From: Eledone cirrhosa
Lineage: Eukaryota
NCBI GenBank assembly: GCA_964016885.1
Contig: OZ024743.1
Location: 190,092,001-190,156,000 of the forward strand
Length of the DNA: 64,000 bases
Reading direction: 5' to 3'
The notes under the pieces were generated by a model. The model saw only the letters and a program-made list of their open reading frames with translations. It did not search any database and was not told the DNA's origin. The position numbers and the translations under genes were made by a program. Shown in pieces: positions 7,917 through 58,296 of this stretch; positions within the stretch are counted from its first letter, which is position 1; each line of letters begins with the position of its first letter.

Positions 7917-8110
7917 GGGTGGGGGATTGGCAGTATCAGTAGAAGGTCAGACGCGATGCTTTACAGCATAGAGTTACGCCGCTTTATGGTCTGAGTTCAT
8001 ATCCTGCTGATGTTCACTTTGCCTTTTATCCTTACGGGGTTGATAAAATAAAGTACCAGTAATGTACTGGGATAATTGCTGGCCTTGTGCCAAAAGTAGA
8101 AACAGTTATT
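7917..8110 (+). mobile_element. SINE family A, inverted relative to 7598-7787
   Basis: GGGTGGGGGATTGGCAGTATCAGTAGAAGG...GAGTTCATATCC...GGCCTTGTGCCAAAAGTAGAAACAGTTATT. Confidence 0.88.
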
Positions 8111-17495: not shown

Positions 17496-17501
17496 ACAGT
17501 C

Positions 17502-17503
17502 AA

Positions 17504-17535
<32 letters not shown>

Positions 17536-17541
17536 AATAAC

Positions 17542-17583
<42 letters not shown>
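17502..17583. repeat. (AAAT)n/(AAT)n microsatellite at Tx1 copy 2 3' junction
   Basis: Direct reading. Confidence 0.95.
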
Positions 17584-17585
<2 letters not shown>

Positions 17586-25169: not shown

Positions 25170-25201
<32 letters not shown>

Positions 25202-25207
25202 AATAAC

Positions 25208-25248
<41 letters not shown>
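18486..25248. repeat. Duplicated block, copy 2 (includes second Helitron 21511-23967 and SINEs 24761-25161)
   Basis: Matches 10820-17582; ends in (AAT)n with no LINE after it. Confidence 0.95.
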
Positions 25249-25261
<13 letters not shown>

Positions 25262-27699: not shown

Positions 27700-30600
27700 T
27701 ATATAATAATAAATAAAGTAAACAATGTAATTCCCCAATAGGGGGGAGTACCTCCTAAGAGTGACTCAGGAACACCACCAATCGTAAACCACCCTACTCA
27801 CCAAGAGTATCCTAGGGCGTGCCCATCTCCTGTGCAAACCAGCCAGCCGAAAGCACACTTCGCGGACAGGTCTGTACAACAGAACTTCCGTGCCTATTGA
27901 TTTTATCGTGAACCGGTAGTGCGCCCCGGTGACACTGCCAAGCTAAGGATCTCTGCAAGTACTCCATAGTCCCTGACACGAAATACTTTCGGAACAGACT
28001 AGTCAGTTCTATTTCGTCAACGCCCAGAACCTCGCAGAGAACCTCGTTGCAGTTGCCCAGCATTAGTCCTCTTTAGAACACAAGTTGAATTTCTACTGTT
28101 CTCATTGTTCTAGTGGCAGACAACTGTGAGCATCTGGCAACATTCCAGATACCAGGCGCTCAGTCTCGGTCTTCTCTTGGCATATGATTGCAGCTCAGTC
28201 ACAGAGACGAGCTGCGAAAAGACTTGTCACACAAACGGTGACCACACATGTTCACCGAATAGGAGTATGCGCAAATGCCGTAGCCTCAGTGCATGTCTGT
28301 GCATCATCAGCCTCTGCATAGAGGGTTCTGGCTGCAATTGGACCGCCTCATTAATGGGCCCTGTCCTTTCCACAAGGAATTGAAGAGCATGCCTTCCAAA
28401 TTTGTGAGGCCTGAACGAAGGCAAGTTGCGAGGACAGGTGGTAATAGATGACTGAGGCTATGCACACGTTCGCCACCTCCGCCTGACCTTTTAACAATAG
28501 CTTCCTATCGGTCCATTTCTGGGTAAGAATGGCCACCTCACTCGTTATCTCGTCCCAGTGGATCCAAACCAGATATCGAGCAACGTCACCTATCCGCCTA
28601 TCGTCAAACGACGCTGTTGAACGGCATGAATTTGCCTCTCCAGCTGCCGAGTTGCAAAGCCACCGATTTTAACGGATTGGTTGATCTTTCTCCGGTCAAC
28701 CTTTCATATTCCTCTTAGAAGTTGCCAACCGTTTCGAAAATACTTATATATATTCGTCGCAGTGACATCGTCGACGCAGCCATTCTACCTCCCGGTTCGA
28801 ACGGGATGTCCTATCACAACTGCAGTTTCCGCAGTAATGGCTCGAGAATTAATACGTACAGAAGGTAAAGAGAGAGCATCCTTGACTCACCAAACGCACG
28901 ATCTGAAACGGTTCCGATAGGTGGCCGTTGATTTAGATCACCGATCCGATTTCTCTGTGCATTTCAGTGATCCAGCCTCTGTTAATGAGACCGAAGCTGG
29001 CTACTTTGAGGACAGCGTCCAGGAATCAGTGGTCGAGCCTATCAAAAACTTTTGCTTGAATCAAATTGATCAGAGCCCAATAAAGCCAGGCTTACTCCCT
29101 ACCCTCTTTATAATATATCACATGATGTGGCTGTTTTCGTGTATGGAGCTGGTCGGTATTGCGCACGTCTGAACCTTCCTCACCAGGCTCTCGACGATAA
29201 AACGCCAACCTCGTCGCTAGCACCTTGGCCAAAATCTTAATCTTTTACAAGAGTTATGGGACGGGAATTGCAATGATGTACCTCATGTCCTCATCTTTCT
29301 TCATCAATGTTACTAAGCCCCACCTCACAGAACTGGGAAAACCTCTTTTTGTTCCTAGATGTAGTAGAAAGTTTCGTGAAGATCGTAAAGCTCATAGGGC
29401 AGATCATCCAAACCAGGCGATTTGCGTCTCGTACAGTTAGTCAGGGATTCCTGAATCTCGTCTGCTGTTATCAGCTTTTCAGAGCACTCTGCAGCTGCAC
29501 ACATCTGCTTGGAATTGACCAGTTCGCGCTCGTCTTGGTCCACCAAAGAGTGAATTGTGATTTTGTTGCCCTTTGCGCCTCTGCCACTTGGGCCCATCGA
29601 ACAGCTTTTATTCCATTGTTTCTTTGCTCTGATAATGCAACCTTCGTGTTTCGCTTTGAAGACATAATTGCCTCTTCCAATTTACCTACTAACGCACCCG
29701 AATTCTTATTACTTTTTCTAATGCTACTTCGTTACAAAAGGCTATTGATACTATTCTAATTTCTCTCTATAGAAGCACCCCACCACCTGGTGTTGACAAC
29801 TCCCCCTGTGAAACTTCGCTTAACTAAAGTTCTAATCCGGTTTCTGTAGGCTTTACGCACCGGGAACGATGCGTTAAGCTTCCAGTAACCAGGTCCCTGC
29901 CTACGTATTCTAGATCAGCCATGCCGATCATGAATTCGTGGTCTGAATAAGCGAAAGTTTGAAAATGTGGACACACTATGATATCCCTATCAGCTAACCT
30001 AATGAAAAATCTGTCTATATACGATTTAGATAACACTGTGCTGTGGATCCAGGTTCACATAGGCGTACTTGGGAAATCTAGTCGGTACCATTTAGAGAGT
30101 TGGAGCCGGCTTATCTGGTTTCTGAGGCTTTTGCACACCCTGCATATATCTGCTACTCCCACAAAATCCCAACGTGAATCCAAGATGCCGTTCCAGTCTC
30201 CCGCTAACACTGATAAAAGCGAGACGTTGCTAGTAAGCATTTTATACGCCTAAAAATATCCGGCCGCCCAGCCCCGGTCGGGGCGCAAACGATCACCAGT
30301 TTAAAAACAACACCTTTTATACTGTTCATGTTCAGGACAATCAATTTACAGCCCGGGTCCAAGAGGATCGTTCGTACCTCGATATTCAGACCTTTTCTAA
30401 ATAGTATTCCTACACCGCTTCCCATTCCAGGCCGACTAAGAGATGCAAATATCTCATACTCATGCAAAGTAGGGGCTAATGCGAGTCTGACTGAAACCTT
30501 GATGTCGTTTGGCAAGCGCCCCCAGGCCAGGAACATTTATAAATCCTACACTTATAGCAGCCATGTTAAGAGAGAAAAAATAGAGGGATCTACTTACGTT

Positions 30601-32560
30601 CTATGTGATTTTGTAGCTCGGCCGCTCGACCTCCTTTGGTGCGGTTTCTTTTGGGAACGCTTTTAAAGGCTTACTGGTATCTCTTCTATTAGGGGTCCCC
30701 TTGAAACATGGAAAGCTCTCCCCAGTGTCTTTGTAGGCACTCAGCGATACCAATACCATCATGAGAAATTCAATGCCTTTAAATAGCTAGTGCCAATAAT
30801 CTTCTGTTTCTACTCGATCTCTTTACTTCGAGCTATAAGAGTCATCAGTTCATTGTTGGCCTCTCTTACTACCACGAAATGTTATGTATGTGGTGTTGTT
30901 TGAAGTTGATATTGTGCTTCCTTCTTTTGGTTGTGATTGTTGTAGGGTTGATAGTGGTGTAGATGGTGGTTGTGTTGCCAGATTGGGTGCTGGTAGATGG
31001 GGTCTTGCTTCAGATGTGTTTGTGTTTTATGGAGTTGGTGTTGGTGTCTGAAAAGGAGTGTTATCTGACGTTTTGTGTAAATGCCTTTTAAAAAATTTTG
31101 GGGTATATTTTCCTTCTTCTCCTTCACTGGGAGAAGAGATGGTGCAAGTGCCCTATAATGGTGACGGTGCATGTATGTTTGTGGCTTTGTGTGTGTGTGT
31201 ATGTGTGTGTGTTAAGAGTGGGTGGAGAGAGTGAGAAGGAGATGGGGAAGGAGAGCTTTCTTTACGGATCCCTGGGAAATTTTGTTCGTGTTTGTTGTTG
31301 TGGTAGTGGTTCAATCGCTGCTGCTGGTGGTGGTGTGGGTGCCACAATTGCTGTTGTTCGTTGTTGTTGTTATGGCTGTTGAAGCCCTGATGTTGGCAGT
31401 AGGATGGGGTTGTAATTCTCTGCTATGTATTAAGGACAGAAAAATCTCATGTGGCCCGTCTGACTACAATAATGGCAGCGAAACCTCTACCCTTCAATAC
31501 CGATGTAGAGTTCTACTCCATCTGACAAGCTATCTTCTCGATCTTTTCGGGTCCGATGCGAAGGAATATCCCTACACTTATCCAGACAAGTTTCTTCTTT
31601 TAGTCTCCTCCACCCCGAGGAGGGTGTCTCTCTCCTCAAGGATCACGCAGGCCAAGAGACATCTAGGGATTCCTGCAATTCTGACTTTTGCAGTCCTTCT
31701 TCATAGGTACACCAGACAGAGTATAACTTTGTGTGTCCAGCAGGGGATCACAGGTCTTTTACGACCAGGTCTTCACTCACGAAGAGCACCAAAAATGTAC
31801 CAAACTGCCTGGCTCTAGCAATGTGTTGGATGTCTGATATGATTTTCAGTGCTCTTTCAACCCATGATGTGGTACTGGTTCTGGCCGTCTATGTTATATC
31901 AAAATGGATTTATAGGTGAGAGTCATTTTGGCAGTTGCTACCGGACAGCCGTATCGGCCTTAGTTTTATCCAATTTTGACAGGATTGGTTGCTTGTGCCA
32001 AATAGGTGCCTTTGTTCAAAAGATCTAAATTGGAAATTTGGATAGATTTATTAACCGTTCCAGCGAAAGTTTCGTTGTTGGTGTTCTTTTTTGTTGTTCT
32101 TTTTGTTGTTATTGTTGCCATTTGTGTTTTCGTTGTTGTCTGTGTTACAATTATTTTTGGTGTTTGCTTGTTATATTTGTTGTGGTATTATTGTTGGTGG
32201 TGGTAGAGGCAGTGTTATTGCTAGTATTGTTGTTGCATTTTGTCGTTATTTACTTCTTGTTTTTTGTTCTTGTGATGGAGGTGGTGGTATTGAAATGTTT
32301 AGTAGCGGGAAATTTGATTCATAGTTTTCTTGTACTGTGTTGTTGATGGTGCCCCTTCCGCTGCTGTTGCAGTCCCTGAGTTTTGCAATTTTGCCTTTCC
32401 ATGCTGTATATTGCCGGCTCTTCCTTTCAACAGACGTACACTCCTCCTCCGCCATTTAAAAACGAAACACTGAGTGGTGTGTTATATAAAGAAACGCGGT
32501 TTAGCCCCTACAGGCCACATGTCGCGCTAAATTAACCAGCTCACGATGATACTGGTTAGT
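27700..32560 (-). mobile_element. Old near-full-length Tx1 LINE (decayed ORF1 ~32455-30594, ORF2 from 30564)
   Basis: Fragments LAGDWNGILD, AYSDHEF, KSPGLDDLPYE, RSLAWQCHRGALPV; ORF1 ETFAGTV motif; 3'UTR hairpin at ~27731. Confidence 0.85.
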
Positions 32561-32659: not shown

Positions 32660-32703
<44 letters not shown>

Positions 32704-32707
32704 TAAT
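32659..32707. repeat. (AAT)n at Tx1 copy 3 3' junction
   Basis: Direct reading. Confidence 0.95.
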
Positions 32708-32949
32708 GTTTTCTTTATTAACCACAAGGGTTTACATAAAGTAGACATTAAGGACAGTACAGGACAATACAGGACGGTACAAATGGGCATTTCTGCGTGT
32801 AAAAAAAACAGAGGATGAAATAAAATAACAAAGAAAAATTCCCCAATAGGGGGGAGACTTCCGAGGGACATTTGTGGAGAAAGCCCATTAAAAGACCACA
32901 GTGGCCCTGACCACCAGGGCAAGGTGCCCTCTCCCAGTTTTCCACCTTT

Positions 32950-35900
32950 AATTTACAGACACATACTCAGAGAAGGCCCATTCATTCGGGCCATACTTGT
33001 TTCTCTCACCCATCTTTCAAAAAAAGCTGGGAAGAGAGCCATTCCCTCTCTACCCTGATTTTCCTTTTCAGATGAAATTTGAAAAAGTTAATCAGGGCAT
33101 CACCGAAGAGGTAAGTGCTCGTCTTCAGCCCTTTCAAACGTGTCCACCATACTATCTCTTTCGCCATGGCCACCAGACAGATAAAAAAAAGCCTGCCCTT
33201 CCCGGCTAAAGGAAGAGGGCGGGGCAATCCTCACGATGGACTCAGCTGATAGCTGGATCCGTCCTACACGTGACAGCAGGTGTTCGACATAAACCCACAA
33301 GTCAGCAATGCTCGGACACTGGACGAGTGCGTGCAGGACGGTTTCGTCGCCCTGTGCGCATCTCGGACATGCCCGGCTGACGGCACCTCCGTGCCTGTAG
33401 AGTTTATCCCGAACTGGCAAAGCTCCCCGGTAGCACTGCCAGGACAGGGATTTCTGGAAGTTGTCCATAGGCCCCGGCCCGAAAGTCCTTCTGAAGAGAT
33501 TGGCTAGTTGATTTTCGTCGACGCCTAGAGTTTCTCCAAGTACGTCGTCGCTCTTCCCCTCCACTAATCCCCTATAGAACGCCAAGGTGGAGTTTCCACC
33601 GATCACATTGCCCGATTGGTCGAGGGCTGTGAGCGCCTGAAGACATTCCAGTCTCCAAGCGCTCCCTCTCGGTCTTCGCTTGACCCAGGACTGCAGCTCC
33701 GTCAAGGAGACGAGCAGGGGAAAAACGTGTCTAGCAAACGGCGACCACAACTGATCACCGTAGAGGAAGAGGTGGAGATGTCGTAGCCTGAGCGCGTGTC
33801 TGCGCATCATCAACCACGCATTGCCCAGCCCTACACGTAGCGGGTGTTGACAGCAGATGGACCGCCTGACCATCGGAGCGTGTCCCTTCCACAAGAAGCG
33901 AAAGAGCAAACGCTCCAGCGCAGTCAGGCGGGGCTTAGGACAAGGTACGACGGTCAGGCGGTAGTAGATGACGGACGCGATGTACGCGTTAGCCACCTCC
34001 GCTCGACCTTTCAGGGATAGCTTCCTCTCGGCACATTTCTGGGTGAGAGAAGCCACCCTGCTCGTCACCTCGTCCCAGTTTTTGTCCGTCTGGTGGGCCG
34101 GACCGAACCAGACCACTAGCAATTTAACCGGTCCGTCCGTCCAGTGCCCGACGACGCTGTTGGACGGCATGTACCTGCCTCTCCAGGTGCCGAGCTGCAG
34201 GCCCACTGACTTTTCCTGGTTGATCATTGCTCCTGTCACCGCATCGTATTCTCTTAGTGTAGTGTCGATCGCCTCGATGTGTTTGGCGTTCGACACCACT
34301 ACGGTGACATCGTCGGCATATGCTGACACGGATCTTCCGCATCCTAGTTCGCGCGGGACCCCCTCAACGTCTGCAGTTTGTGCAGTAATGGCTCGAGAGT
34401 CAATACGTACAAGAGGGACGAGAGGGGACATCCTTGGCGGACCGAGCGCATGATGTTGAACGGTTCCGAAAGGTGACCGTTCACTCTCACTACAGAGCAG
34501 ATGTCGCTGTGCATGGCAGCGATCCAGCCTCTGAAGACGGGCCCAAAGCCAGCCGCCCTCAGGACTGCCGCTAGGTAACGATGGTCGACCCTATCGAAAG
34601 CTTTCGACTGATCTAAATTGATCAAAGACCCACCCGTGCCAGGTTCCCTAGCTACCCTCTCTACGATGTATCGCATGGGGTGGAGGTTGTCGTGGATGGG
34701 TCTGTCGGGAATGGCGCATGTCTGTGCCTCTCCCACCAGACCACCAACGACAAGCGCCAACCTCTTTGCTAGCACCTTGGCCAAAATCTTGAACTCTGTG
34801 TTTAGCAGAGTTATGGGCCTAAAATTATCTATGTTATCCCCCTTGTTCGGATCCTTTCTCAGCAGCGCCACCGCTCCTCGGCTCACAGAGCTGGGAATTC
34901 TCTCGTTCTGTTGCCAGTTGCAGTAGACGTCCGCCAAGAGCCCTCCGAACAAGTCTGGCATTTGTACGTAAAGTTCATAGGGCAGACCATCCAAACCAGG
35001 CGATTTACCCCTTGTGCAGCCAGTCATTGCGTCCCGTACTTCAGCGGTTGTTATCGGCTTTTCGCAACACTCCGCCTCAGTGGCCGAAAGCCGCGGCAGT
35101 CCGTCGAGGTAGACACTAAAGTCCATCCCTCGATCCGGCCCGCCACTGCCCCCGAACAGTTGAGCGAAGTGTCGCTGAAAAGCTTCACACATTTTCCCGG
35201 GATCGAGTAGCATGCGCCCGTCGTGGTCCACCAAAGACCGGATCGTGGCTTTGTTGCCACGACGCGCCTCCGCCACTCGGGCCCATTGAACGGCTTTCGT
35301 CCCCTCGTGTCTGAGAGCACGCACCCTAGCTCTGACAACGCAGCCTTCGTGCTTTGCATTGAAGAATTGGTCAAGGGCCAATTTCGCCGCAAGTACGTCA
35401 GTTGCGATGCCTTTGCACAGCGCCTCGTCTAATTTTCTAACTAATTCTCCCTCTGCTCTATTTTTCTGTATTGCTAAAGCCTTACTAAACCTAATGGACT
35501 CTATTCTAATTGCTCTTTTCAGAAGAAACCACCACTTGTTGTTGACGATGGCCCCCGTCAACGCCCGCTTAACTAGTTCGCGAATCCGGTCTCTGTAGGC
35601 CTTACGTGCTGGTAAGGAAGCGTTTAGTTTCCAGTAGCCGGGTCCTCGTCTATGAAGCCTATCTAAGTCAAGCACACAGATCACGAATTTGTGGTCCGTG
35701 TAGCTGACTATCTTGAATTGTGGACAGCCTATGCTAGACCTATCTATTTCCCTACAAAATACTCTATGATCTGGATGACCCTATGCGATTTGTCCAAGTC
35801 CACACTGGTACATTCGGGAAATCCATTCGGTACCTGTCAGACAGTTCAAAACGCCTGAGCAGGTTGGTGAGGCTCTTGCACCCTCCACCCCTATCCGCTA

Positions 35901-36362
35901 ATCCCACACAGTCCCAGCGTGCATCTAAGATCCCGTTCCAGTCGCCCACTAACACTAAAGAGCGGGACGTTCCAAGAAAGGTCTCCAGATGCCGGAAGAA
36001 ATCAGGCCGCCCTGCTCCTGTCGGGGCATAGACGGCCACTAGCCTGAAAGCTTGCCCGTCTCCGCTGGTCACGTCCAGCACCACCAGCTTACCCTCTGGG
36101 TCCAGGAAGATGGCCCGTATGGCGAGATCCAAACCTCTCCGAAAAAGCACAGCAACTCCTCCCCCGATCCAGGACGGCTGGGAGATGCGTACACATCGTA
36201 GCCGCCGAAGATCGGTGCGAAGGCCCGTGCTTCGGAGATTCTGGTCTCGCTGATGGCCACTACATCTATGTTTAGTGACCTGAGGTCGTTGAGCAGGTGA
36301 CCCTGCTTCCATGACGACCCCAAGCCACGCGCATTTATGCTGCCTATTCTGAGTGAGGTCAT
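32950..36362 (-). pseudogene. Tx1 ORF2 (APE endonuclease + reverse transcriptase), several lesions
   Basis: MTSLRIGSINARG, DVVAISET, VYAP, GDWN, GYWKLN, KAFDRVDH, QGCPLS, YADD; split over ORFs 36069-36362, 35764-36312, 34344-35684, 33100-34431, 33006-33227. Confidence 0.92.
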
Positions 36363-36397
36363 GTTTAAAATAGAGTGGAAAAGATGGGAAAGACCAC

Positions 36398-38496
36398 TTA
36401 CCGTACTTTTGGTAGATGAGGGATGGTTTTTACATCCCTTTACACTTGATCGTCTGGTGAAGGGACCGTTGAATCGTCCCTTCGGCTGGTCGTCGGCTCT
36501 TCTAAGAGAATGTCTGAATATACTCTTCGATTGATAGTTCCTTCTAGGTCCCTGAAATCACCAACTGCGTTGGGGAATTTCGTTTTAATGTTTGTGTATT
36601 GTTTCTGCGCTATTTTTAGCAGTCTTATGTTAGTTGGCGTTTTGATTGGTGCTGGTATTATGTAGTCGTGTTGTGAAATGTCTGTGTGTTCAATTATGTA
36701 AGTTATTAATTTCTTGTTGTGTGTATTTATTGCCGTGCATTTGTTTTTCTGGGGGTGGGGTGTGTTTCTGCTATTTTCTTGTCGTTGTTGCTGGGTGTGT
36801 GTGTTTTGTTGTTTTGTTTGCGATGTTGGTGCTTGTGGTGGTGGTGTTGAAGGTGTTGGCGGTGGGGTTGTCGCAGGTGGTGATGGTGGTGCTAGTGTGG
36901 GTGGTGATGGTGTTGGTCGTGTTGCTGCTGTGGGTCTCTTTGCAGTAGACTTACCCTTTTCTCATTTCTTTCCTCCCTTTTCAAAGGCAACGATGCGCTG
37001 CTTCTGCGTTTGTGCCTTCTTACGACCTTTTGCCATCCCTCTCCCACCTCACACTCCATGTCTGATTCTGTGAGGTCGGGGAGGGGTACCAGCTCCACTC
37101 TTTCACTTGTTGTTGTTGGTGATGTTTGCACTGGAGTCTCTGTTGCAGCTGCATTTGGTATTGCTGTTGTTGTTGTTAATATTTCCACTGCTGCTGCTGT
37201 TTTTGATTTCCGTGGCGTGGGTATGGGTGCCACGGACCTACCGTTCCTGGTTGCCGCTTGTCCTGTTGCTGGTAGCCGTGGAGCCGGTTTCGGAAGGAGG
37301 GGGGTTTTCTCCTTTCTCAGGGTCTTCTCGTTGCAGAAGGCCCTGAGGTTAGTCTTCGATCCACAGCGAAAGCATTTCGGGCGTTTGCCCTCAACACTTA
37401 TGGGCAGTTGAGTGCCGTTATCGAAGTCTATCACATCCGGGATAGCTTCGATGCACTCCTGGTTGGTTTGGATTAGCATCTCAATGGAGGTGCCGACCCA
37501 ATCTTCTCTTACTTTTTTCTGTACTTGCAGTACAGTTGTTTTGTCCTCGATTCCGACGAGGACAGACGCGGCCAGCCAAGAAGGGGCCATTCCGGGGGGG
37601 ACGTGGGTCAGTTTGACCCTCACAATTTTTTGCCCGCAGTAGGAGGGCACCAACATCATTTCATCGCTCCTTAGGGTCACTACGGATTGGGCTTTTGCCT
37701 CCTGGGGTGTGGCAAAAAGTACGTCTACGGTGGCATATTTTTTGCCTCGGGTGATGTGCGTTTTCCGCTGCCACACAGACCCCAAGGCTTTTTGTATTTG
37801 GGCCTCTGTGGCTCTTTCCACCCTACGGGATTGTGTACTTACTGTACGGTACGTGACCGTACAGTGCTCTTGGGTTTCGAAAAATTTTTCCGCTGCCTTG
37901 CAGATTGCTCGGTGTACATTCTTTGTCACCATCTTCTTCGCTTCCTCTAATTCCTCATTTGTTATGAGGATTATTTCCAAGTTTTTCGCAATACCTGCAA
38001 ATGAGATTGGTTTTTCTTTGCTGCTGTTGTTGTTGTTGTCGTCAGAGCTGCTGTTACTTTTGTTGTTGCTGCAGGTACTACGACTACTGCCTTCGCCGCT
38101 GTTGCTGTGGTTGTTGTTGGTGTTGCTGCTGCTAATGCTGTTGTTGTTTATGCTGCTGGTGATGCTGTTGCGGCTGCTACTGTTGTTTTCATTGTCACTG
38201 TTGCTGTTGTTATTACGGCTGCTACTGCTATTATTCCTGACGTCAGACGAATGAACTGGGTTTTCGTATTTCCCGCACACCTGTTTCGTCGCTGTCGTCG
38301 TCGTCGTGGAGAAACCTTGCACGCTTTGCACGAGACTTTTCTTTTCTTTCGTCGCTTGCGAAAGAGAAGGGAGGGAGAGAGACACATTTAAAGAAGGGAG
38401 GGAGAGAGACAATCTTCTCTCTGCTGTAGTGATGATTGAGGAAGAAGAAGACGGAATGAGTGGGAGTGACCTATGCAAATTCTTTTTCGTAGCCAT
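36398..38496 (-). pseudogene. Tx1 ORF1 (nucleic-acid-binding protein), frameshifted near 36950
   Basis: 534-aa ORF 38496-36892: N/S-rich N-terminus, ISFAGIAK, zinc knuckle CFRCGSKTNLRAFC, GWQKVVRR; downstream frame KFPNAVGD. Confidence 0.85.
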
Positions 38497-38712
38497 ATTG
38501 ATTTTTTTGTTTAAAATAAATATTGGGTATAAAACCCCAATAAGCAGTTATTTAACCCCGAAGGGCCAAATAACGGACAGAAAGACCCCTCTCACGAGGA
38601 GGAGGGTGTTTTTGTCTACAAGTTGGTCTAAGTTTTAAACAATTTACAATTGTTATAGCGTTCAAAATTTACAGTACCTTACAGAGCCGAGCCTCCGTCA
38701 ACCATAGCATTC

Positions 38713-38743
<31 letters not shown>

Positions 38744-38751
38744 GTAATAAT

Positions 38752-38939
38752 AATTGTTTCTACTTTAGGCACAAGGCCAGCAAGTAACCAGTGCATTACT
38801 GGTACTTTATTTTATCGACCCCGTAAGGATGAAAGGCAAAGTCAACCTCGGCGGGATTTGAACTCAGATCGTAAAGGGACGTAACTATGCTGGAAAGCAT
38901 GGCGTCCGACCCTCTACCGATACTGCCAATCCACCGCCC
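38752..38939 (-). mobile_element. SINE family A inside (AAT)n
   Basis: Full-length copy with (AAT)n on both flanks. Confidence 0.92.
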
Positions 38940-38956
38940 TAATAATAATAATAATA

Positions 38957-40079: not shown

Positions 40080-40112
<33 letters not shown>

Positions 40113-40149
40113 TGATCATGATGATGATGATGATTATGATAATAATAAT
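40023..40149. repeat. Compound microsatellite (AAT)n(GAT)n(GAC)n(GAT)n
   Basis: Direct reading. Confidence 0.95.
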
Positions 40150-43100
40150 GATTTCATTTATTAGCCACAAGCGCCGACATGTAGGGGACAATACAAAGAC
40201 AGGGACAGTGGGAGTTTACAATAAGGTCGAGTATAAGTGCACAATGGCAAGACTAATTTAACAATGAAGATATAAAAATATAAAATAAACTATGCATAAA
40301 TATAACAAAATAAATTCCCCGATAGGGGGTGGACGACCCTGGGGTGATTCGGGTACCCCACCAATCCTGAACCACCCTGCGCTTCTAGGGCACACAGGGA
40401 GAGCAAGTTAGCTAGCCTATAGGCGCATGGTCAGAGTAGGCCCATTCACACGAGCCATTCTCGCCACATTCACCCACCTTTTAGCAAATGTACTGGGGGG
40501 GGGGGGGGGGGGGGCAGCACTTCTCTCTCCACCCTCACCTTCCTTTCCAGGTGAAACTTGAAGAAGTTGATGAGGGATTGGCCGAAGAGAAAAGTGTCTG
40601 TGTTTAGTCCTTTCAACCTGGTCCACCATATAATCTCTTTCGCAACTGCCACCAGACAGGAAAATTTCCTGCTCTTCCTGACCTAAGGAAGGCAGTGGAT
40701 CGATCTTCACTATGGACTCGGCCGATAGCCGGATTCGTTCTACACGCGACAGTAGCTGTTCGACATAACTCCACAAGTCAGTAATGCACGGACATTGGAC
40801 AAGTGCGTGCAGAACGGTTTCGTCGTTCTGTGCGCATCTTGGGCAGGCCCGTCTGACAGCACTTCCGTGCCTGTAGAGTTTATCCCGAACCGGCAGTGCC
40901 CCCCCTGCAGCACTGCCAAGCGAGGGATTTCTGGAAATTGTCGATCGTCCCCGGCTCAAAAGTCCTCCGGTCAGACTGGTCAGTTCAACTTCGTCGAGGC
41001 CCAAAGCTTCTCCGAGTGCGTCATCGCACTTGCCCACCACTAATCCTCTATAGAACTCGAGAGTGGAAGTTCCACTGATCGCATTGCCCGCTTGGTAGAG
41101 GGTAGTGCGTGCCTGGCAACATTGCAGGTGCCAGTCACCCAGTCTCGGTCTCTTCTTGACCCAGGACTGCAGCTCAGTCAAAGAAATGAGCTGCGGAAAC
41201 GCACGTCTGATAAACGGCGACCACACCTGTTCACCGTTGAGGCAGAATATCTGGAGATGTCGCAGCCTCAACGCATGTCTGTGCATCATTAGCCACGGCA
41301 TACCCAGCACTCCGCGTAGAAGGTGCTGGCAGCAGATGGACCGCCTCACCAACGGAACTTGTCCCCTCCACAAAAATTTGAAGAGAAGCCGTTCCAACTT
41401 GACGAGGCGCGACGGGGGCAAAGCACGACTGTCAGGCGGTAGTAGATGACGGACGCGATGTACGCATTCGCCACCTCCGCGCGACCTTTCAGTGATAGCT
41501 TCCTCCCAGCCCATTTTTGGGTGAAACTGGCTACTCTGCTCGTTACCTCGACCCAATTCTTTTCCACCTGGAGGTCTGGTCCGAACCAAACCCCGAGCAA
41601 CTTTACCAGTCCGTCCGTCCAGCGCCCCACGATGCTGTTGGACGGCATGGGCTTGCCTCTCCAGGTTCCGAGCTGCAAGCCCACCGACTTTTCCGGGTTA
41701 AATGTTGGCTACTGTCAGCCTTTCATATTCCTTCAATAAGGTGCCGACCACCTCGATTTCTGAGGTGTTCGACACCATCACGGTGATGTCGTCCGCATAA
41801 GCCGACACCGCATTTCCACGTCCCGGTTCGAGCGGGATGCCCTGCAACAGCTCCAGCTTCCGCAGTAAAGGCTCGAGAGTCAATACGTACAGAAGGGAAG
41901 AGAGAGGGCATCCTTGACGGACCGATCGGGAGAGCCGAAATGGTTCCGAGAGGTGGCCATTAACCTTGACCACCGAGCGTATGCCGCTGTGCATTGCAAC
42001 GATCCAGCTTCTAAAGACAGGGCCGAAGCCAGCTGCTTTGAGGACAAACTTCAGATACCGATGGTCAACCCGATCGAATGCTTTCGATTGATCTAAATTG
42101 ATCAGTGTCCCACCGAAGCCAGGTTTACACCCTACCCTCTCTATGATGTATCGCATGAGGTGGAGATTGTCGTGTATGGACCTGGCTGGGATTGCGCAAG
42201 TTTGCGCCTCCCCAACCAAATCCTCGACGACAAGCGCCAATCTCTTTGCTAACACCTTGTCCAAAATCTTAAACTCTGTGTTGAGTAGAGTTATGGGCCT
42301 GAAGTTGTCTAACGTATCCCTCTTGTTCTCGTCTTTCCTTATCAGCGTCACCACTCTCCCTGCTCACAGAACTGGGAATACTCCCATTCTGCTGCCAGTT
42401 ACAGTAGTGTGCTTCGAGGAGTTCTGAGAACAAGTCTGGCATATTTACGTAAAGCTCGTAGCGCAGGCCATCCAAACCGGGTGACTTGCGCCTCATGCAG
42501 CCGACAAGGGCGTCCTGAATTTCGGCTGAAGTAATCGGCCTTTCGCAGGGCTCAGCGTCGACCGTCGAGATGCGCGGCAAGCCGTCAAGGTAGAGACTGA
42601 AATCCGCTACTTTCTCTGACTCGCCACTCTCCCTGAACAACCGAGCAAAGTGCTGGCGAAAGGCCTCACACATCCGCTTGGAATCGCTTATCTCGTGTCC
42701 GTATCGGTCCGCCAAAGACCGATTTGTGGTTTTATTACCACGGTGCGCCTCCGCCACGCGGGCCCATCGAACAGCTTTAGTTCCCTCGTTTCTCAGCGCA
42801 CGCGCCTTAGCTCTGACAATGCAACCTCCGTGTTTGGCATTGAAGAAATGGTCCAATGCCATTCTCGTCGCTAGCACGTCAGTTGCGATGCCACTACAAA
42901 TAGCCTCGTCTAACTTATCTACCAGCTCCCCCTCCTTTCTATTTTTATCTAACGCTAGTTCTTTGCTGAACTCTATCGAAGTTACTCTAATCTCTCTTTT
43001 GAGATCCACCCACCATCTGTTATTGATGATCCCCCTGTCAAATTTTGCTTAACTAAATTGTTGACTCGGTCCCTGTAAGCCTTACGTGCCGGAAATGACA

Positions 43101-43893
43101 TATTCAGCTTCCAGTAACCCGGTCCTGACCTACGCGTTTTATTTAGGTCGACCGTACAGATCACAAATTTGTGATCTGAATAGGCGACCGTTTTAAAAAG
43201 TGGACAGCCCACACTATTTCTATCTATTTTCCTAATGAAGATCCTGTCTATATACGATCTAGATGACCCCATTCGGTTGGTCCATGTCCATACTGGCACA
43301 TTGGGGAAATCTAGTCGATACCTGTCAGACTGTTGGAACTGGCTGAGTAGGTGCTTGAGGCTTTTGCACCCCGCTCCTATCGGCTACTCCCACACAAGCG
43401 TGCGTCTAAGATGCCATTCCAGTCCCCCGCTAACAGTAAAGGGCGAGACACACCCAGAAAGGTCTCCAGGCGCCTAAAGAATTCAGGTCGTCCGGCCCCT
43501 GTAGGGGCGTAGACGGCCAGCAGTCTAAAGGCACCACCTTCGCTACTGCTCACATCCAAGACCACCAACTTACCGTCCGGGTCCCGGAAGATCGACTTTA
43601 CCTCGAGATCCAGTCCTTTCCTAAACAGTACTGCCACCCCACCCCCATTCCCGGCCTGCTCACAGATGCGAAGATCTGATAGTCGTCGAAAATGGGGGCT
43701 AGTGCGCGCGTGTAGGAAATTCTGGTCTCGCTTACGGCAATCACATCCATTTCCAGCGACCGGATGTCGTTGAGCAGGCGACCCTGCTTCCAGGGTGACC
43801 CCACCGCGAACATTTAAACTTCCTACTCTTAATATGGCCATATTGGTAAGCTAAGAGAGAGAGAGGGAAGGTTTACTTACCTCCCGGGTCTTG
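40150..43893 (-). mobile_element. Tx1 LINE copy 4: complete but broken ORF2, truncated just upstream of it; ~13-bp TSD
   Basis: MAILRVGSLNVRG at 43841, EN/RT motifs; TGATAATAATAAT at 40137-40149 and 43894-43906; G20 run at 40495-40514. Confidence 0.93.
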
Positions 43894-43919
43894 TGATAAT
43901 AATAATAATACCTGCTAAC

Positions 43920-47046: not shown

Positions 47047-47358
47047 ATGTATGTATGGACAGATAAATAGGTGAATGAACCTGTAACTCTCGTTGGAGTC
47101 ATAGGGGCGTCGTAGTGATATATTGCATTTCTTGAACATTTTAAACATAAGTATACCCTTTCAGGTCTGAACGTAACTCATGTCTTCCAGTGAAAGATAT
47201 AGAATGATAGAGAGAAAGTAAGAAACAGATAAAGAGAAAGAAATGATCACAGAACTGAACGCAAATTCATTGCCTATTCTTCTACTCTATTCAGATATAA
47301 GAATTCTAGGGATTCGATAAATTTGGTCTGATAAGTACCAATATCCGAACTGGGTAAA

Positions 47359-47548
47359 TAATTGTTTCTACTTTAGGCACAAGGCCAGCAATTACCCAGT
47401 GCATTACTGGTACTTTATTTTTATCGACCCCGTAAGGATGAAAAGTAAAGTCAACCTCGGCGGGATTTGAACTCAGACCGTAAAGGGACGTAACTATGCT
47501 GGAAAGCATGGCGTCCGACCCTCTACCGATACTGCCAATCCACCGCCC
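47359..47548 (-). mobile_element. SINE family A with ~9-bp TSD
   Basis: GTAAATAAT on both sides. Confidence 0.9.
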
Positions 47549-48042
47549 TGAGTAAATAATGAAAATCATTGCCCATACCACAGGCTTTGTATTTATGATG
47601 GCTCCGAAATAGATATGTGAAAACTTTAAAGACTGCTATTCTAGTGTTAACTTAGGCTATACATAAAGAAAAGCAATTTTGGAAAAATAATGATTATATT
47701 TTTCTTTTTTTGTGACAACCAAGTAGAAACCAATACAATTTAGAGCATTAAAAGAGAAACAACTAAAGCAAAATAAATTCACCAATAAAAGTTATTTTCT
47801 AAGTAATGAGTAAATTTCATTTTCTTTTGAAATTTGAATATAAATCCGCTCACGTACCTATTAGCATAAGAATACACTTCTCCCATAAATCTTTATGCTT
47901 CATGATTCTAGAATATAATTAAACATATATCACACTCTCAGACACACATGAATATGGATACATATACGTATGTATGAATAAATATCTGTATTAATTGATG
48001 TTTAAATTTAGCTGTACATACGAACACACGCTCACACATATA

Positions 48043-49960: not shown

Positions 49961-51943
49961 TATGATCGAGTGCTCCATTTCGTGAAGTCATGCTGCTATA
50001 TTAAGCATTACCACAAACCAAGGTCTGTCACCCACTGCTACTGTCAATTGCCGATCGACTAGTAGTTAATGCCACACGTGGAATATCGGCACAAACTTGA
50101 ACATTTAGTAGTAAGGTCGATTTTCGGAACTCCCACATAGAGCTAATGGCTGACGAGTATTCACTTGTCCAGAATATGGTGATTATGGATTTATTATTAA
50201 TCGATGACCAGCGGATTCTCCACGGAATTTGAAATGATACTGTACCACTGTACCAGGACATAGATCTGGATTTTTGTGCACTAAACTAGGAAGAGACTAG
50301 CTGTTTCGATTGTTGAAATTTTGAATGCTTTAACATATTCATATGATAATGTCTTGATACAAAATTTACACTGTTTTAGTAGCTTAGGCCTCTGGGTGGG
50401 AATGTTGTATTACAATTAATCATATGCATGTGCTTCAAATATATATATATGCGCGCGTGTTTGTATGTATGTGTATCCATATATATTCAATTACACATGT
50501 ATTCACACTTACAGAGAAACTTGAAATTAAATGCATTGTAATTTGCTCTAATGTTTCAATACATAACAATTAATTGATGTACAATTAACACGAACGATAA
50601 ATATATTAAAGCAAAAGTTTTGGAGTATATATACTTTTAATACAGTTTTATGACAGTCATTTGCATAGAAATTTGACTGATGACATTTCAGACTACGCCT
50701 GTTTAACACCTTATAGCGTTATATTGTTTTTAGTTTAAAAAATGACAACACTTTTGGAATTTCGTAAAGTATTATATTACGAGAGGCTAATATAAATGTT
50801 GATACCTCTTTTGTTCAATCTATTTATTAAATATCAAAAGCTATCCATTAGAAAGACATTGCAGTTTCTCATGGAATTCTGATATTGAACACGAGATGTA
50901 CAAAGCCAAAGAGAAATTGAGATCAGGAAGATGTGTTTGAATATAACATTTTTTTATTTTATAAAAGACATAAATAAATTCAAATATTTTCGTTGACATT
51001 TATAAAAACAAAATAGTGTTTCTTTTATTATTCCTGATTGCAATTAGCCCTCAGAAAAATGTCTCTTATTTAATACATTATGATATAATAAACGAAATTA
51101 GACTTATTTATATATTTTATTAACACATAGATGATGTGGTTGTTGTCGATGTGTTGTTGATAGTGTGAGAATGGTGAAGGTTATGGGAGAAACAGTATTC
51201 TTGTTGAAATTGATGTTTTAGGTCATGGTAACGATGAGATAGATAAGAGGAAGATAAGGTGGGGAAGGAATATGCTGTTATCTAGAAAATAAGTAATTAT
51301 GTGGTTTAAATTGCAATTAGCTCAACCAGTTGCTCAGCTACATTGTAAGTGATCTTCTGCTTTGATGGATATGGATTCATCTCTAACCAGTGGCACATAT
51401 TATCCAATTTCATTGCGCATTTCAGCGTTGCACATATCTCTATTATTTCCCTCTAAATCTAAACGACTTTCTTACTTTTAATATACACATTCCATTAATC
51501 GTGTTCTTATATACAGGAAAATAACCATCGATGAAAGAATGACAAGCTGTTATCTAAGTTCTTTGTACAAACCACCTCAATACATAGAAAGTAATTTAAA
51601 TTCGAGCTTGTTACATCCATTTTAATGGGGCATTTCAGAAAAAATTAGTTTTAATATTGAGTTAATTTTTACTTACAATAGCGTTAAAGGTTGATTCTCT
51701 CTACGTACCTACCTACCTATCTACGTATCTATCTCTCTGGGATGGACATACGCGTGAAACTTGCTGGGTAAGTTCTGCCTAAATTTCTATAGAAATTCCT
51801 AACTGTAAACCTTTATTTTTATACCAATTTGTAGAGGAACTGCCAGGTCAAATTTTCATCTGGTCAATCTATCAAAATATTCTACGCCTTTAGGCGAAAT
51901 AGTTCACAAAAGTTTTTTTGGAAAAGCTAACATTTTTTAAAAA

Positions 51944-53759
51944 ATGACTGAAGCTTCTTCACCAACATTCGAAGGAGGAAAGGGGGAAGATATGCTTACA
52001 GCTTCCCCCTGCCACTGTCATAGTAGCAGATGTCAAAGACAAAGGTCAGCCAGAGGAAGGATTTTCTCCACCTGCTGACCAACAACTTGACGTTGCCATG
52101 GCAACAAACCAAAAAATGTGAAACAATGAACAAAACCAACACAACCAGCGGCACCAGCAACAACAACAACAACAATGCTACGAACGAAAACAACACCAAC
52201 AACAATAACAATAACAACAACAAGACCAATAACTGCAACAAGGAAGTAAACGACAAAATATCATTTGCGCAAACCGTAAAGAAAACGGTAAGCTATACTC
52301 TGGTAGATATTTCAAATGCAAATGAGCTTTTGAATAACGCCAGACAATATGTAACTTTTGGGGAGAACGGATCATTCTCCATAAACTCTCCCCCAGATTT
52401 GCGAAGAGAAGCTGCCTTGAAAACTATGGTTTTCAGGACAGTCTCAAACAAAACCCGAACACCGACTCAACTTTCACAAGGCGAAATTGAGTTGGTTTTA
52501 GAAGGTACCTTAAAAGACATTGCTTTCATTCAGAAGGGTAGACTCTACGGGAGTTTATCCATTCTGATGAAAGACCAACTGACGGCACAGAAATACTCTG
52601 TGTCGCCAATTGTGTCACCGTTGTTCACCCTTTTCCCCACTTACATGGGGAAAAGAACACAGAAAATAAAAATCCAAAGTATCACACCAAATATTGATAT
52701 TTGGTGGGTACTATGTGGATTTTTAAACCTAGAAAAAGACACAATAATATCGGTATGTAAGTCCTCCGGCGATCTGTTCAGCGGAACTAGCCTGGAAATT
52801 CTTGTCCAAATGACATCAGAACGAATAGCTAGGATCCCGGAACGTGTGCTGCTGGATGGACTTATATACATAAACATTTCGGTCGAGGGTAGGCGGCCCT
52901 CATGTTACCACTGCCTAAGCAGGGGTCACCTGAGAGCTTCCTGTACGCGGCTAACTAGCCCCAAAAAGGCATTACTGCCTACACCTGCAACACCAGCACA
53001 ACAATCACCACCACGACCACCACCACAAAAACAACAACATAAAAAAATAGTGACAACAAAACAAACGACAAACACAGTCCCACCCAACCCCTCCCCACCT
53101 AAAACAACTCCAGAAACACCCACACACATATCAGCTCCCCAAAATGTACCCCTCTCCAACAACACGGATGAGGCCTCATCATCGTCACCCAGTGACGAAG
53201 AGGGAGAGCCTTTCCGACCAGTAAAATGAAAAAAGAAAAGACATAACACAAACAAAAATGCAACAAACACACAAACACCAACACAAGCGATGCAAACAGC
53301 ACAAACAAAAACACCCCCTCCTGAAAACAAAATACCTACTACAAAACGTAAACACACACAAGAACCACAAACAAAAAGAAACCCAACACAACAAAAATGT
53401 TACACCTACATAAATACTAACAATAAAACTTTAACAGACACCATATATAAAAAAACCCTTCGGTGGAGACCGAAGGGAAAACTTTTACACACTCTTCGGA
53501 GAATCCTAATCTTAAAATGATTAGGACCTCCATGGACACACATAAACAATTAAAAGAAAAATTTCCTAACGACGTAGGTAACCCCTGCGTCAAACCCTAC
53601 AATCGAGTCCTGTTAAAATGTTTCCCCATCCCACCAGACACCCCCTACCCACCAAACATATTTGTCCCCACCCCTCCAGAGACCACCACCCCACCAAACA
53701 ACCCCTCTAACAGCCCCATGGAAACTGTGCAGCCTGGTCCTCAGGAGACGAAGAGGTGA
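51944..53759 (+). pseudogene. Tx1 ORF1, frameshifted
   Basis: 399-aa ORF 52030-53229 with N-rich tract, ISFAQTVKK, knuckle CYHCLSRGHLRASC; last frame KFPNDVGNP...ETKR* ends at 53759. Confidence 0.85.
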
Positions 53760-53799
53760 GTGATTTGTTTTCCTCTTCTTTTAACTTTTCAGCACCAAC

Positions 53800-56445
53800 A
53801 TGGCCAATATAAGGGTTGGATATGTGAATGTACGCGACCTGGGGATGCCCTGGAAACAGGGCAAACTCATAAACGACCTCAGGTCGCACAGTATGGATGT
53901 AGTAGCAATTTGCGAGTCGAGGATCCACAGTGAGCAACAACTGGCCCCCATCTTCGACGACTTTGAGATCTACGCACCTTTCTGTCATCTGGGAGTGGGG
54001 GTGGAGCTGCCGTTTTGCTGCGGAAACACCTGAACCTCGTAACACAGACGGTACATCTGGACCCGGAGGGCCGACTGTTGGTCCTAGACGTTGACGGTAG
54101 TGAAGGTGGGGCCTTTAGGCTGGTGGCTCTATATGCCCCATCCGGGACACTGCGGCCAGACTTCTCCAAACGTCTAGAGACTTTTCTGGGAACGTCCCGC
54201 TCCTGCTGTTAGTGGGGGACTGGAATGGAGTCCTAGATGCACGTTGGGACTATGTGGGAGCATGTCCGGATAGAGGGTGTGTAACATCCTCAAACAGTTA
54301 ATCGGCCGATTTGACCTGGCCGATAGATATCGACTAGATTTTCCAACTGTGCCACTGTGGACGTGGACTAATAACTGCGGAACATCTAGATCGTACCTAG
54401 ATAGGGTTCTAGTTAGAAAGAAGGATAGGGACATGTTAAGCTGTCCACAAATGTTCATGGTTGCCTATTCAGATCACAAATTAGTGACCTGCTTAGTCAA
54501 CCTTGACAAAACCCATAGACAGGGATCCGGCTACTGGAAGCTGAACTTGTCGTTACCGACATGCAAAGCCTACAGTAGACGGATTAGCACTTTAGTTAAG
54601 CAGCACTTGACGGGGGCCATCGTCAACAACAGATAGTGGTACTCTCTCAAGAGGGCAGTTAGATTAGACTCGATAGGTTTTAGTAAAGAATTAGTGTTAG
54701 ATAGAAATAAGACCGATAAGGAACTGGTAGATAAAGTAGAAGAGGCACTTAGGAGTGGCAACGTAGCCAGCGTGCTAGCAACGAGAACGATATTGGACCA
54801 GTTCTTCGACGCAAAGCATGAAGGCTGCGTTGTCAGAAGCAAAATACGTGCTCTGGGAAACGGAGGAGCCAAAGCTGTTAGCTGGGCCCGAGTGACGGAG
54901 GCGAAAAGTGGCAACAAGTCCACGATTCGGTTTTAGAAGGACCAAGACGGACGCGTGATACGTGAGCCGAAGCAAATGTGCGCGGCCTTTCAGCGGCACT
55001 TTGCTCAACTGTTAGGGCAGTGCGGCGCGCCGGGAGGGGCTATGGATTTCGGTTCATATCTCGACGGCCTACCGCGACTCTCGGACAGCGAGGCGAAGTT
55101 CTGCGAAAGGCCGATTTCGGCCGCTGAGATGGGGGACGCGCTGAGCCAATGCAGCAAACGCAAATCTCCAGGTCTCGACGGTCTACCCTACGAATATTAC
55201 GTAGCAATGCCGGACTTGTTCTCCGGTCTCCTGGAAGCGGTCTGCTGCAACTGGCGGCAGAACGGGAGAATTCCCAGTTCTGTGGCCAAGGGCGTAATCA
55301 CGTTAGTCAGGAAGGACGAGAATAAGGGGGATGACATAGGCAACTTCCGGCCCATAACTCTGCTCAACACAGAGTTACAGATTTTGGCCAAGGTGATGGC
55401 AAAGAGGCTGGCGCTTGTCGTCGAAAACCTGGTGGGAGAAGCGCAGACATGCACAATCCTGACCAGGTCCATACACGACAACCTCCACCTCATGCGATAC
55501 ATCATAGAGAGGGTAGGGTGTAAACCCGGCTTCTGTGGGGCCCTGATCAACTTGGATCTGTCTAAGGCTTTCGATAGAGTTGACCATCGTTACCTGGATG
55601 CGGTGCTCGAGGCGGCAGGCTTCGGTCCCGTGATCAGGGGCTGGATTGCTGCAATGCACAACAGCAACATCTGCTCAAGGGTCAAGGTGAACGGATACCT
55701 CTCGGAGCCGTTCCATATCAAGCGATCCATCCGACAGGGAGTCCCTCTTTCCTCCCTTCTGTACGTACTGACTCTCGAGCCACTACTGCAGAAGTTGGAG
55801 CTATTGCAGGGCATCCCTTTGGAACCGGGACTGCGAAAAGCAGCGTCGGCCTACGCCGACGACGTGACAGTAATGGTGTCGAGCACCTCGCAAATCGCGG
55901 AGATCGGCACCTTACTGGAGGAATACGAAAGGTTCACAGGAGCGAAGCTGAACCGGGACAAATCCGTCGGTTTGCAACTCAGAACGTGGAGAGGCAAACC
56001 GATGCCGTCCGATGACGTCGTCTGACGCTGGACGGAAGGACCGGTAAAGCTGCTCGGGGTCTGGTTTGGTCCTGACTTCCAGGTGGAGAAGAACTGGAAC
56101 GAGGTGACGGCCAAGGTGTTTGCGCTCACCCAGAAGTGGACCGAGTGCAAACTATCCTTTAAAGGTCGAGCGGAGGTGGCGAATACTTTTATAGCGTCCG
56201 TTATCTACTATCCCTTAACCGTTGCGCCCTGTCCAGCCAAAACGCTCACCAAAATGGAAGAAGAATCAGGATGGAGAGAGAGGTGCTGTACCCCAGCAAA
56301 TTTTATAAAAGGTGGGTGAATGTGGCAAAGATAGCCCGAGTGGTTGGGCCTTCTCTCTATATAAGCCTAGCAAATTTTATAAAAGGTGGGTGATTGTGGC
56401 AAAGATGGCCCGAGTGGTTGGGCCTTCTCTCTATATAAGCCTGTA
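53800..56445 (+). pseudogene. Tx1 ORF2 (APE + RT), broken
   Basis: MANIRVGYVNVR, YSDHK, GYWKLN, KAFDRVDH, YADD; ~73-bp tandem duplication at ~56296-56441. Confidence 0.9.
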
Positions 56446-57092
56446 GGTTGAGGAAAAAGAGGAAGAGAGGAAGGGAGTACTCACTCTTGGTGCTCCTGGA
56501 GATGAGGGTTGTACATTTTTTCGGGGTGTGTACAACCCCTGTGTAACACCTCCTCCCTATTGGGGATTTCAATTGTTATTTGTTATTGTAATAATAGTTT
56601 TATTTTCATATACCTGTATGTAAACTCCCCATTTGTATTTGTCCCCTTCTTTTGTGCCCTTGTAGCTAATAAATAAATTTATCTATCTAAACATATCTAT
56701 CTATCTATATATATATATATATATATATATAGCTGTATAGGTTTTAAACTATCTTCCTATCTATCTACATATTTAGCTTGCCATCTACATAATCATCTAG
56801 CTATCTATTCAACCAAACATCCAAACCCACACATTTACTTACCTACATAACCTATTCTCGTAAGGATGTAGTCAGTTAATCAGCATAACCATTTCATTAA
56901 AGTGTTTCGTTTATATACAGTTTAAGTGACGTCAATCAGAATACGAGTTGTTGTAAATAAAGGTAAAATGACATAATCTAGTTTTGCATATATATACTCT
57001 CCTCACACACATGTACACCCCAACACATACACACATACACACGCACACAAACACACACACATGCACACACACACACACACACACGCGCGCAT

Positions 57093-57129
<37 letters not shown>

Positions 57130-57132
57130 ATT

Positions 57133-57320
57133 AATTGTTTCTACTTTAGGCACAAGGCCAGTAATTACCCAGTGCATTACTGGTACTTTATTTTATCGAC
57201 CCCGTAATGATGAAAGGCAAAGTAAACCTCGGCGGAATTTGAACTCAGACCATAAAGGGACGTAACTATGCTGGAAAGCATGGCGTCCGACTCTCTACCG
57301 ATACTGCGAATCCACCGCCC
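57133..57320 (-). mobile_element. SINE family A
   Basis: Full-length copy next to (CA)n 57005-57124. Confidence 0.9.
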
Positions 57321-58296
57321 ATATATATATAATGAATGTTTGCTCTACACAGTTGATCCCTGCTTAATGTTTTGAAACGTGCCCTATATTAGCTATACAG
57401 GTTTATTATGGTCAACTTGAGAATACTTTTCATCGAGCAAGTAAAGATGGTTGACGTTGCTTTGTATGAGGTCTCATAAGATTAAATGTGCATAAATAAG
57501 ATACTTATAATATGGTTATTGAAGTCGAGTATGTGTATATATATATATATATATTGTTATGTGACGACCTGGGTGTATTTTATGTGTGTATTATTTATGG
57601 TTTGTTATATTGAAATCCGGTTATTTTCGGTATATGGAATCATGTGAGGTGGGTGGGGTGAGACCGAAATAGTGGATTAAAGTGGGTACATGTTAGCTGA
57701 GTGTTGATGTTGGATGTCTGAGCTTGTATTTTTCCATGCTGATAGAAAAAGTACTTTTACGTGATGAGCAACTTCAAAATAACTCATTCTTAGTGTTCGG
57801 GTATTTATTGGAGGATTCCGATCCCTGTTTTATCCCGTACTTCTAGTTTAGACAAAGTGAACATCTCTTAGATGTTTGATCTGAATTTATTTAAGGTACT
57901 ACATTTAATTGTGTAAGGTATCCCTTTATCTTTTAGTTTCCAGACATGCTTTGCCAGTGTTGTGGTTGTCTTCTTTTGTTGGAGTCTAAAGTATGTGGTA
58001 TGTGACTAATACCGTTTTATAAAATGGTCTTGTGCCATGCTAACCTATCGCAGTTCTCTGTTTGTTTGGCTGTGCTTGATGTCAATACACTATTGACTTA
58101 ATATTATATCCCTGTTGTACCGGGTAGTTCTCCTTTACCCTACACGATCATCGCGGTTTTCTTCACGTTTCTTCTTATGTGTTATCTTCGAACTCATGGA
58201 AGATCCACAGGAATAACTGATTTTCGCCGACTGCCAACTAAATATTTTACTATAAATTTCTTGATGGGGAAATGTTATATCTCTTAGGTCTAATAA

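Follow-up and report, generated by a model that had tools for sequence, protein, structure and literature searches.

At the boundary between ORF1 and ORF2 of Tx1-like LINEs in the genome of Eledone cirrhosa, a splice-donor motif of the U1 type—G/GTRRGT, with the slash between exon end and donor—is found 28 to 47 nt before the ORF2 ATG in 15 of the 18 lineages that have a junction, and it is very likely held in place by selection on its nucleotides. The site is real, conserved, and so far unexplained, whereas the elements that carry it are of a known kind. The explanation that we prefer, tentatively and with less than even confidence, is that the motif serves as a U1 snRNP site that stays unspliced in the copied RNA and suppresses premature polyadenylation within the A-rich ORF1 tail. 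The evidence is that the motif persists whatever the reading frame or the length of the ORF1 tail, that neither a conserved acceptor nor a spliced genomic copy was found, and that another donor-like site lies close to the 5' end. "The window" hereby refers to the whole analyzed stretch of 64,000 nt, which belongs to a genome of 3.0 Gb; the family labels F1–F14 are our own naming, and statements from papers given by PMC number refer to excerpts of these papers.

The LINEs of the window carry two ORFs within about 6 kb. In an intact F2 copy, the ORF1 frame of 705 codons bears a CCHC knuckle, and ORF2 encodes 1139 aa with an APE endonuclease (PF03372), a reverse transcriptase (RT; PF00078), and the C-terminal zinc domain zf-RVT (PF13966). 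The top match of ORF2 among solved structures is human L1 ORF2p (E 2e-50), ahead of R2, and the closest named RT relative comes from Argonauta hians at 74% identity; the RT searches brought up no named Tx1 reference. ORF1 matches no Pfam family at cut-off; it contains CX2CX4HX4C, and its Atlas neighbours are zf-CCHC and ZCCHC3 RBD (0.90–0.93). Tx1 elements are recognized by an ORF1 with an RNA-binding domain and a CCHC knuckle, not by the Transposase_22 of vertebrate L1. Both flanks are (ATT)n in 7/7 F2/F3 copies checked and (TCTA)n in 4/5 F1/F5/F6/F8 copies. By the sequence features of ORF2 domains, ORF1 type, and microsatellite target, the elements are Tx1-like LINEs, and all families are of shared ancestry (70–96% ORF2 identity between them). 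The same two ORFs—APE, RT, and zf-RVT in ORF2, an RRM-type-like core plus CCHC in ORF1—are found in the Tx1 clade with Kibi, Koshi, and the microsatellite-targeting Tx1 of crocodilians. Copies of such microsatellite-targeting families sit in microsatellites, as they do here in (ATT)n or (TCTA)n (PMC4494074, PMC13282606), and L1-Tx1 families are listed as recently active in Octopus vulgaris (PMC13282606).

Two microsatellite targets coexist in this one genome, (ATT)n for the F2/F3 clades (L165, L169, L292) and (TCTA)n for F1/F5/F6/F8 (L257, L176, L267), and new copies are often nested beside the 3' ends of other Tx1 copies. In the youngest family, F3c, dozens of copies have an intact ORF2, and there are head-to-tail arrays with a period of ~5.8 kb, one of which holds 10 units (C1:423367673-423420159, C4:276743012-276756972, and others). 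The window itself contains a tandem duplication of ~7.7 kb with 98% identity (9912-25252), which includes a 5'-truncated F2 copy, and many copies of a SINE- or MITE-like repeat of ~190 nt (1912-2097, 7593-8113, 17088-17497, 25889-26080, 38745-38955, 47355-47566, and 57127-57336), once as an inverted pair (7593-8113). The LINE features are collected in Table 1.

Table 1 Tx1-like LINE features in the window, in window coordinates; motifs are split at the exon end/donor boundary
Feature	Positions	Strand	Details
F1 Tx1-like LINE copy	51737..56687	+	5' end, broken ORF1 (ATG 51944), ORF2 from 53800, 3' UTR; internal ORF2 deletion near 56256
F1 second donor-like site	51766..51834	+	GG/GTAAGT (51768), ~31 nt inside the 5' end; T-rich tract; TTGTAG (51834)
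F1 junction, donor-like motif	53754..53761	+	AG/GTGAGT; phase 2; ORF1 stop TGA 53757-53759 inside; GTRAGT in 29/30 F1 loci
F1 junction, spacer	53762..53799	+	pyrimidine-rich; CAG 53790-53792; ends CAAC before ORF2 ATG 53800
F2 full-length copy	32700..38712	-	(ATT)n flanks; ORF1 ATG 38496; ORF2 ATG 36362
F2 5' donor-like site	38616..38679	-	AG/GTACTG (38677); candidate AG (38616)
F2 junction donor	36396..36403	-	CG/GTAAGT (36401); phase 2; ORF2 ATG 36362
F3a copy	40112..43896	-	5'-truncated 16 nt upstream of the donor
F3a junction	43841..43882	-	AG/GTAAGT (43880); phase 0; family ORF1 stop TAG 43853-43851; ATG 43841
Old single copy, junction	30564..30603	-	AC/GTAAGT (30597); phase 0; TAG 30603-30601 in the ORF1-homologous frame; ATG 30564

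A sequence-only reading of the window had described a donor, a pyrimidine tract, and the ORF2 ATG in the same layout at four junctions. On re-reading, this layout is present as described at 53756, 36401, 43880, and 30597, as are the details given for 53756—TGA in the donor, pyrimidine tract, TTAAC, TTTTCAG (53792), and ATG 53800—and the distances from donor to the AG of ORF2 codon 5 (58, 53, 53, and 47 nt, respectively). The 30597 donor has a C at -1, unlike the G/GT(A/G)(A/G)GT of the other window sites, and this copy is without close kin. The CAG of the F1 spacer is not kept in other families. The four spacers are not independent of each other, since homology links the ORF1 tails of three of the lineages (53756, 43880, and 30597). 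Among loci that were the best matches to a query itself containing the motif, GTRAGT is present in 29/30 F1, 20/20 F2, and 25/25 F3a loci. An upstream in-frame TAA in the 36401 copy had been left as either decay or the true end of ORF1; it is decay, since this TAA (36442-36440) is private to the copy, the other copies having AAA there and an ORF1 open to the TAA within the donor. In three F2 copies, the frame is open throughout the 549 codons that were read before the donor.

Further families were obtained from genome searches anchored on the ORF2 start, and the genome-wide conservation of the motif, which the sequence-only reading had proposed to check, is borne out. The 15 lineages with the motif were picked as representatives after inspection and anchored on the motif, and the remaining three are old lineages known from one copy each (L271 with AG/ATGAGT, L278 with CC/GTAAGT, and the 30597 copy). 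Within ORF2, the motif occurs at a background of ~0.017 per 60 nt (14 in 44,200 nt); hence, its presence at 15 of 18 junctions lies beyond chance. Fourfold degenerate ORF2 sites are invariant at only 35/141 positions over 13 families (25–30% overall) and 52–62% identical between the three deep clades, and from -20 to +25 (45 positions) none of the 40 positions outside the motif is invariant. The motif itself varies only at positions that U1 tolerates—GTAAGT, GTGAGT, GTAGGT. Its sharing among so many lineages despite the low fourfold invariance and the lack of any other invariant flanking position is what makes selection at the nucleotide level very likely. The pyrimidine tract begins around position +9, with no conserved AG behind it. 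A different LINE lineage (L236) matches the ORF2-start pattern without a donor-like motif upstream.

The motif is not tied to one reading frame. The phase-2 donor claimed for all four window sites does not hold at 43880 and 30597, which are in phase 0: in the family of the former (F3a), ORF1 reads through GTAAGT to a TAG in 4/4 long copies, and the frame of the latter is homologous to the F3 ORF1 tail. Phase 2 is found in F1, F2, F2b, F6, F7, F8, and F11b, with TGA, TAA, or TAG inside the donor, and phase 1 in F3b, F3c, F5, and F11. The frame changes within each of the three deep clades, and in the F2 clade ORF1 tails of three lengths occur, the motif staying with the spacer. Since it is kept in phases 0, 1, and 2, neither the stop codon nor the protein accounts for it. 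At the junction, ORF1 tails and ORF2s from different lineages meet (L176-L179, L261-L265, L281-L283)—F5 combines an F1-like ORF1 end with an F7-like ORF2, and F11 and F11b have shortened tails—and sequence comparison suggests module exchange at or near the motif.

On the acceptor side, no comparable conservation could be found. ORF2 codon 5 had been said to begin always with AG, yet 704 ORF2 starts fit a CGN pattern (CGA; family F6), and what is constant is an Arg codon, not a fixed AG. F6 combines the donor with a stretch up to the ATG that is free of AG; an in-frame AG within 90 nt is missing from F6a and F12, and the CAG of F3c is out of frame. An in-frame AG within 90 nt exists in 11/13 families, which is near chance at 1–5 AGs each. 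Among 87 conserved AG columns examined, no conserved distal acceptor stands out. In 11/13 family majorities, CTRTAG is the sequence at the ORF2 stop; the next base is mostly G, and a moderately pyrimidine-rich run precedes the stop; the acceptor score of this TAG/G is not above that of several coding AGs, and the ORF2s of F2 and F2b end in TAA. Of the hallmarks of a spliceosomal intron, the junction shows the GT donor consensus (15/18), but neither a conserved acceptor nor an in-frame phase.

Spliced L1 RNA leaves spliced genomic copies (PMC5860796), and a search for such copies was therefore used as a test for splicing. Intron-less copies were sought genome-wide as the exon end followed by atypical bases, with patterns that cover the exact joins proposed earlier (53755 to 53793 or 53814; 36402 to 36348). 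Against about 2,500 intact copies (F1 516, F3b/c 986, F3a 208, F6 830), atypical copies numbered 41+7+1 in F1, 29+10+10 in F3b/c, none in F3a, 68+9 in F6, and 7 in F2. All 182 were read and 0/182 is a canonical splice product, within patterns that leave out F6/F3a copies with G then not T, F1 copies with GT-purine, and F3b/c copies with GT-not-A; of the intact F3a copies, 30/208 were read. The 182 are point mutants, small deletions, or members of the sister family F5 or its tandem duplications, and they also include one chance match, one copy running into a simple repeat, and two larger joins. These two copies (L339, L373) join a point near the donor into ORF2 and were rejected: they are one G off the canonical product and fit a microhomology deletion, and exact versions are absent. 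Copies lacking ORF2, with the donor joined to the ORF2 end, were not found in F1, F6, or F3b/c, nor was an ORF1–ORF2 fused protein among 183 long candidates, which is a weak test. In four sequencing runs, whose kind is not recorded, compared with the intact F2 copy, no joint leaves the donor among the 15 joints listed (512 more exist), and contigs of runs X4 and X5 cross the F2 donor unspliced. For window positions 53680-53920, again with runs of unrecorded kind, four runs gave no joint, X4 no cover, and X5 and X6 one crossing contig each. With few, long contigs and, in X5, a strong rise toward the 3' end, X4–X6 resemble RNA, but they may be shallow DNA, and the run data are not counted as evidence.

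Most families bear a second donor-like site at +30 to +44 from the 5' end, in 5' UTRs that are otherwise unalignable. It is followed by a T-rich run and often by an AG ~62–68 nt on (L164, L160, L178, L256, L292, L174, L169). For F3c, 318 intact sites compare with 3 point mutants, none of them spliced, and the single atypical F6 match is not spliced either. It may mark an intron of the 5' UTR or be a promoter-proximal U1 site. A makes up 40–42% of the final 800 nt of ORF1, and in seven copies that are not independent of each other this region contains 17 AATAAA/ATTAAA signals vs 8.9 expected from codon shuffles, compared with 6 vs 8.3 in the ORF2s of the same copies. This excess in the ORF1 tail is modest. 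The nearest poly(A)-like signal lies -111 to -616 from the ATG at no conserved distance, with none in that range in L283.

A conserved donor with a tract directly behind it, in the absence of a conserved acceptor and of spliced descendants, is most simply read as binding of U1 without intron removal. Hereby, U1 snRNP would bind the donor consensus before ORF2, and the bound U1 would suppress cryptic poly(A) signals in the ORF1 tail so that transcription reaches ORF2. The pyrimidine tract might act as a U1 enhancer of the TIA-1 type, TIA-1 being known for U1 recruitment by a U-rich tract downstream of a donor. ORF2 would be made by re-initiation from the unspliced RNA, by analogy with other L1-group elements. 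U1 usually protects poly(A) sites downstream of it, and protection upstream rests on the case of HIV-1, where U1 bound to the major splice donor suppresses the poly(A) site of the 5' LTR. HIV-1 is, however, a retrovirus with one fixed poly(A) site, and its donor is also spliced. The absence of a conserved distance to the poly(A)-like signals, their modest excess, and the acceptor-like look of the TAG/G at the ORF2 end speak against anti-termination by U1. A U1-site role had been the fallback of the sequence-only reading and has gained ground—the motif is kept in all frames and through three ORF1 tail lengths—whereas its main proposal has lost it. This proposal, a mini-intron of 30–60 nt whose removal fuses ORF1 and ORF2 in frame, is now highly improbable. 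In F1 and F3a, a YAG does precede the ATG (CAG at 37 nt and TAG at 30 nt, respectively), in frame with their own, differing phases, and some in-frame AG occurs in most families. However, the latter is near chance and fails in F6a and F12, the CAG of F3c is out of frame, the phase is not conserved, and 30–37 nt is below the usual size of animal introns. None of the atypical copies is a canonical product, although L1 proteins preferentially copy their own mRNA (PMC5860796); a spliced RNA that makes RT would by this cis-preference be the RNA copied, and quick loss of the intron is predicted.

Splicing from the donor to a distal acceptor, most likely the TAG/G of the ORF2 stop or a host exon, would instead yield an ORF1-only mRNA, which would rarely be copied because it makes no RT. 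The phase is irrelevant here, ORF1 being complete at the donor. This is unlikely, and its special form—the whole ORF2 as an optional intron from the donor at the ORF1 stop to the TAG/G at the ORF2 stop, with abundant ORF1-only mRNA and the U1-bound unspliced RNA as template—a little more so; if true, it would be a copia-like strategy in a LINE. Ty1/Copia elements make GAG likewise (PMC5580714), the CTRTAG stop is common to 11/13 family majorities, and a stop follows within 2 codons in the phase of ORF1 in F3a, F3b, F3c, F8, F9, and 1/3 F7 copies. Yet F2 and F2b end in TAA, F1, F5, and F6 would gain 27–93 residues, short stops also occur in unused phases, the acceptor score is unexceptional, and the corresponding copies are missing, though only ~300 nt of copying would reach the joint. 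We also regard as unlikely an element for re-initiation at ORF2 or for ribosome recruitment to it, built from motif, tract, and CAAC-ATG, whose resemblance to a donor is coincidental. Such a block would fit re-initiation as the proposed route to ORF2 in LINE-1 and SART1 (PMC5972666); where ORF1 tails differ, it accompanies the start of ORF2, and its spacing to the ATG stays within 28–47 nt. But the kept positions are those that pair with U1, families differ in whether the stop is within the motif, behind it, or a long way off, and a similar motif is found at the 5' end, where re-initiation is not needed. A stop-codon context inherited from the ancestor without function is very unlikely. It would draw on the shared ancestry of the families and on the fact that 3 of the 6 bases are a stop codon in phase-2 families, where the last ORF1 codon is Arg; however, the motif survives where no stop lies inside, no other flanking position is invariant, and retention of -1, +1, +5, and +6 has a chance of ~0.004–0.008 at 0.25–0.3 invariance per neutral site.

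The closest parallel to the preferred reading of U1 binding without splicing is EVD, a Ty1/Copia element of Arabidopsis, in which a conserved donor, located close to where the structural-protein ORF ends, both splices and, by binding U1, blocks premature termination and gives full-length RNA (PMC5580714). EVD differs in being a single-ORF LTR element, in having a conserved acceptor, and in its demonstrated spliced GAG mRNA; here, neither acceptor nor spliced product was found. In human L1, splice signals also lie inside a LINE, and spliced RNA leaves spliced genomic copies (~1.8%, SpIRE97/622), but these SpIREs use donors of the 5' UTR, and their products can be seen in the genome, in contrast to a deeply kept junction site without products (PMC5860796). 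For Tx1 elements, the literature searched holds no counterpart to the junction donor conserved in the families of this genome, and more broadly it describes no conserved donor between the ORFs of a Tx1 or L1 element, most subscription papers and Repbase reports being outside its scope. The excerpts of the O. vulgaris repeat paper (PMC13282606) mention neither splicing nor introns, and those of PMC7140322 do not mention splicing. Scans of viral and metagenome data gave no informative junction from other species, only a truncated plant-like L1.

Recruitment of U1 to decide the fate of an RNA is already used by retroviruses and Ty1/Copia elements. For the L1 group, it bears on the question of how the ORF1:ORF2 ratio is set and how full-length RNA is passed through A-rich sequence. 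A donor that has outlasted changes of frame, and that is found in an active family of which dozens of copies are intact, allows the recruitment of U1 by a LINE to be tested with a single mutation. Also, thousands of octopod insertions would carry strong donors able to alter the splicing of their host.
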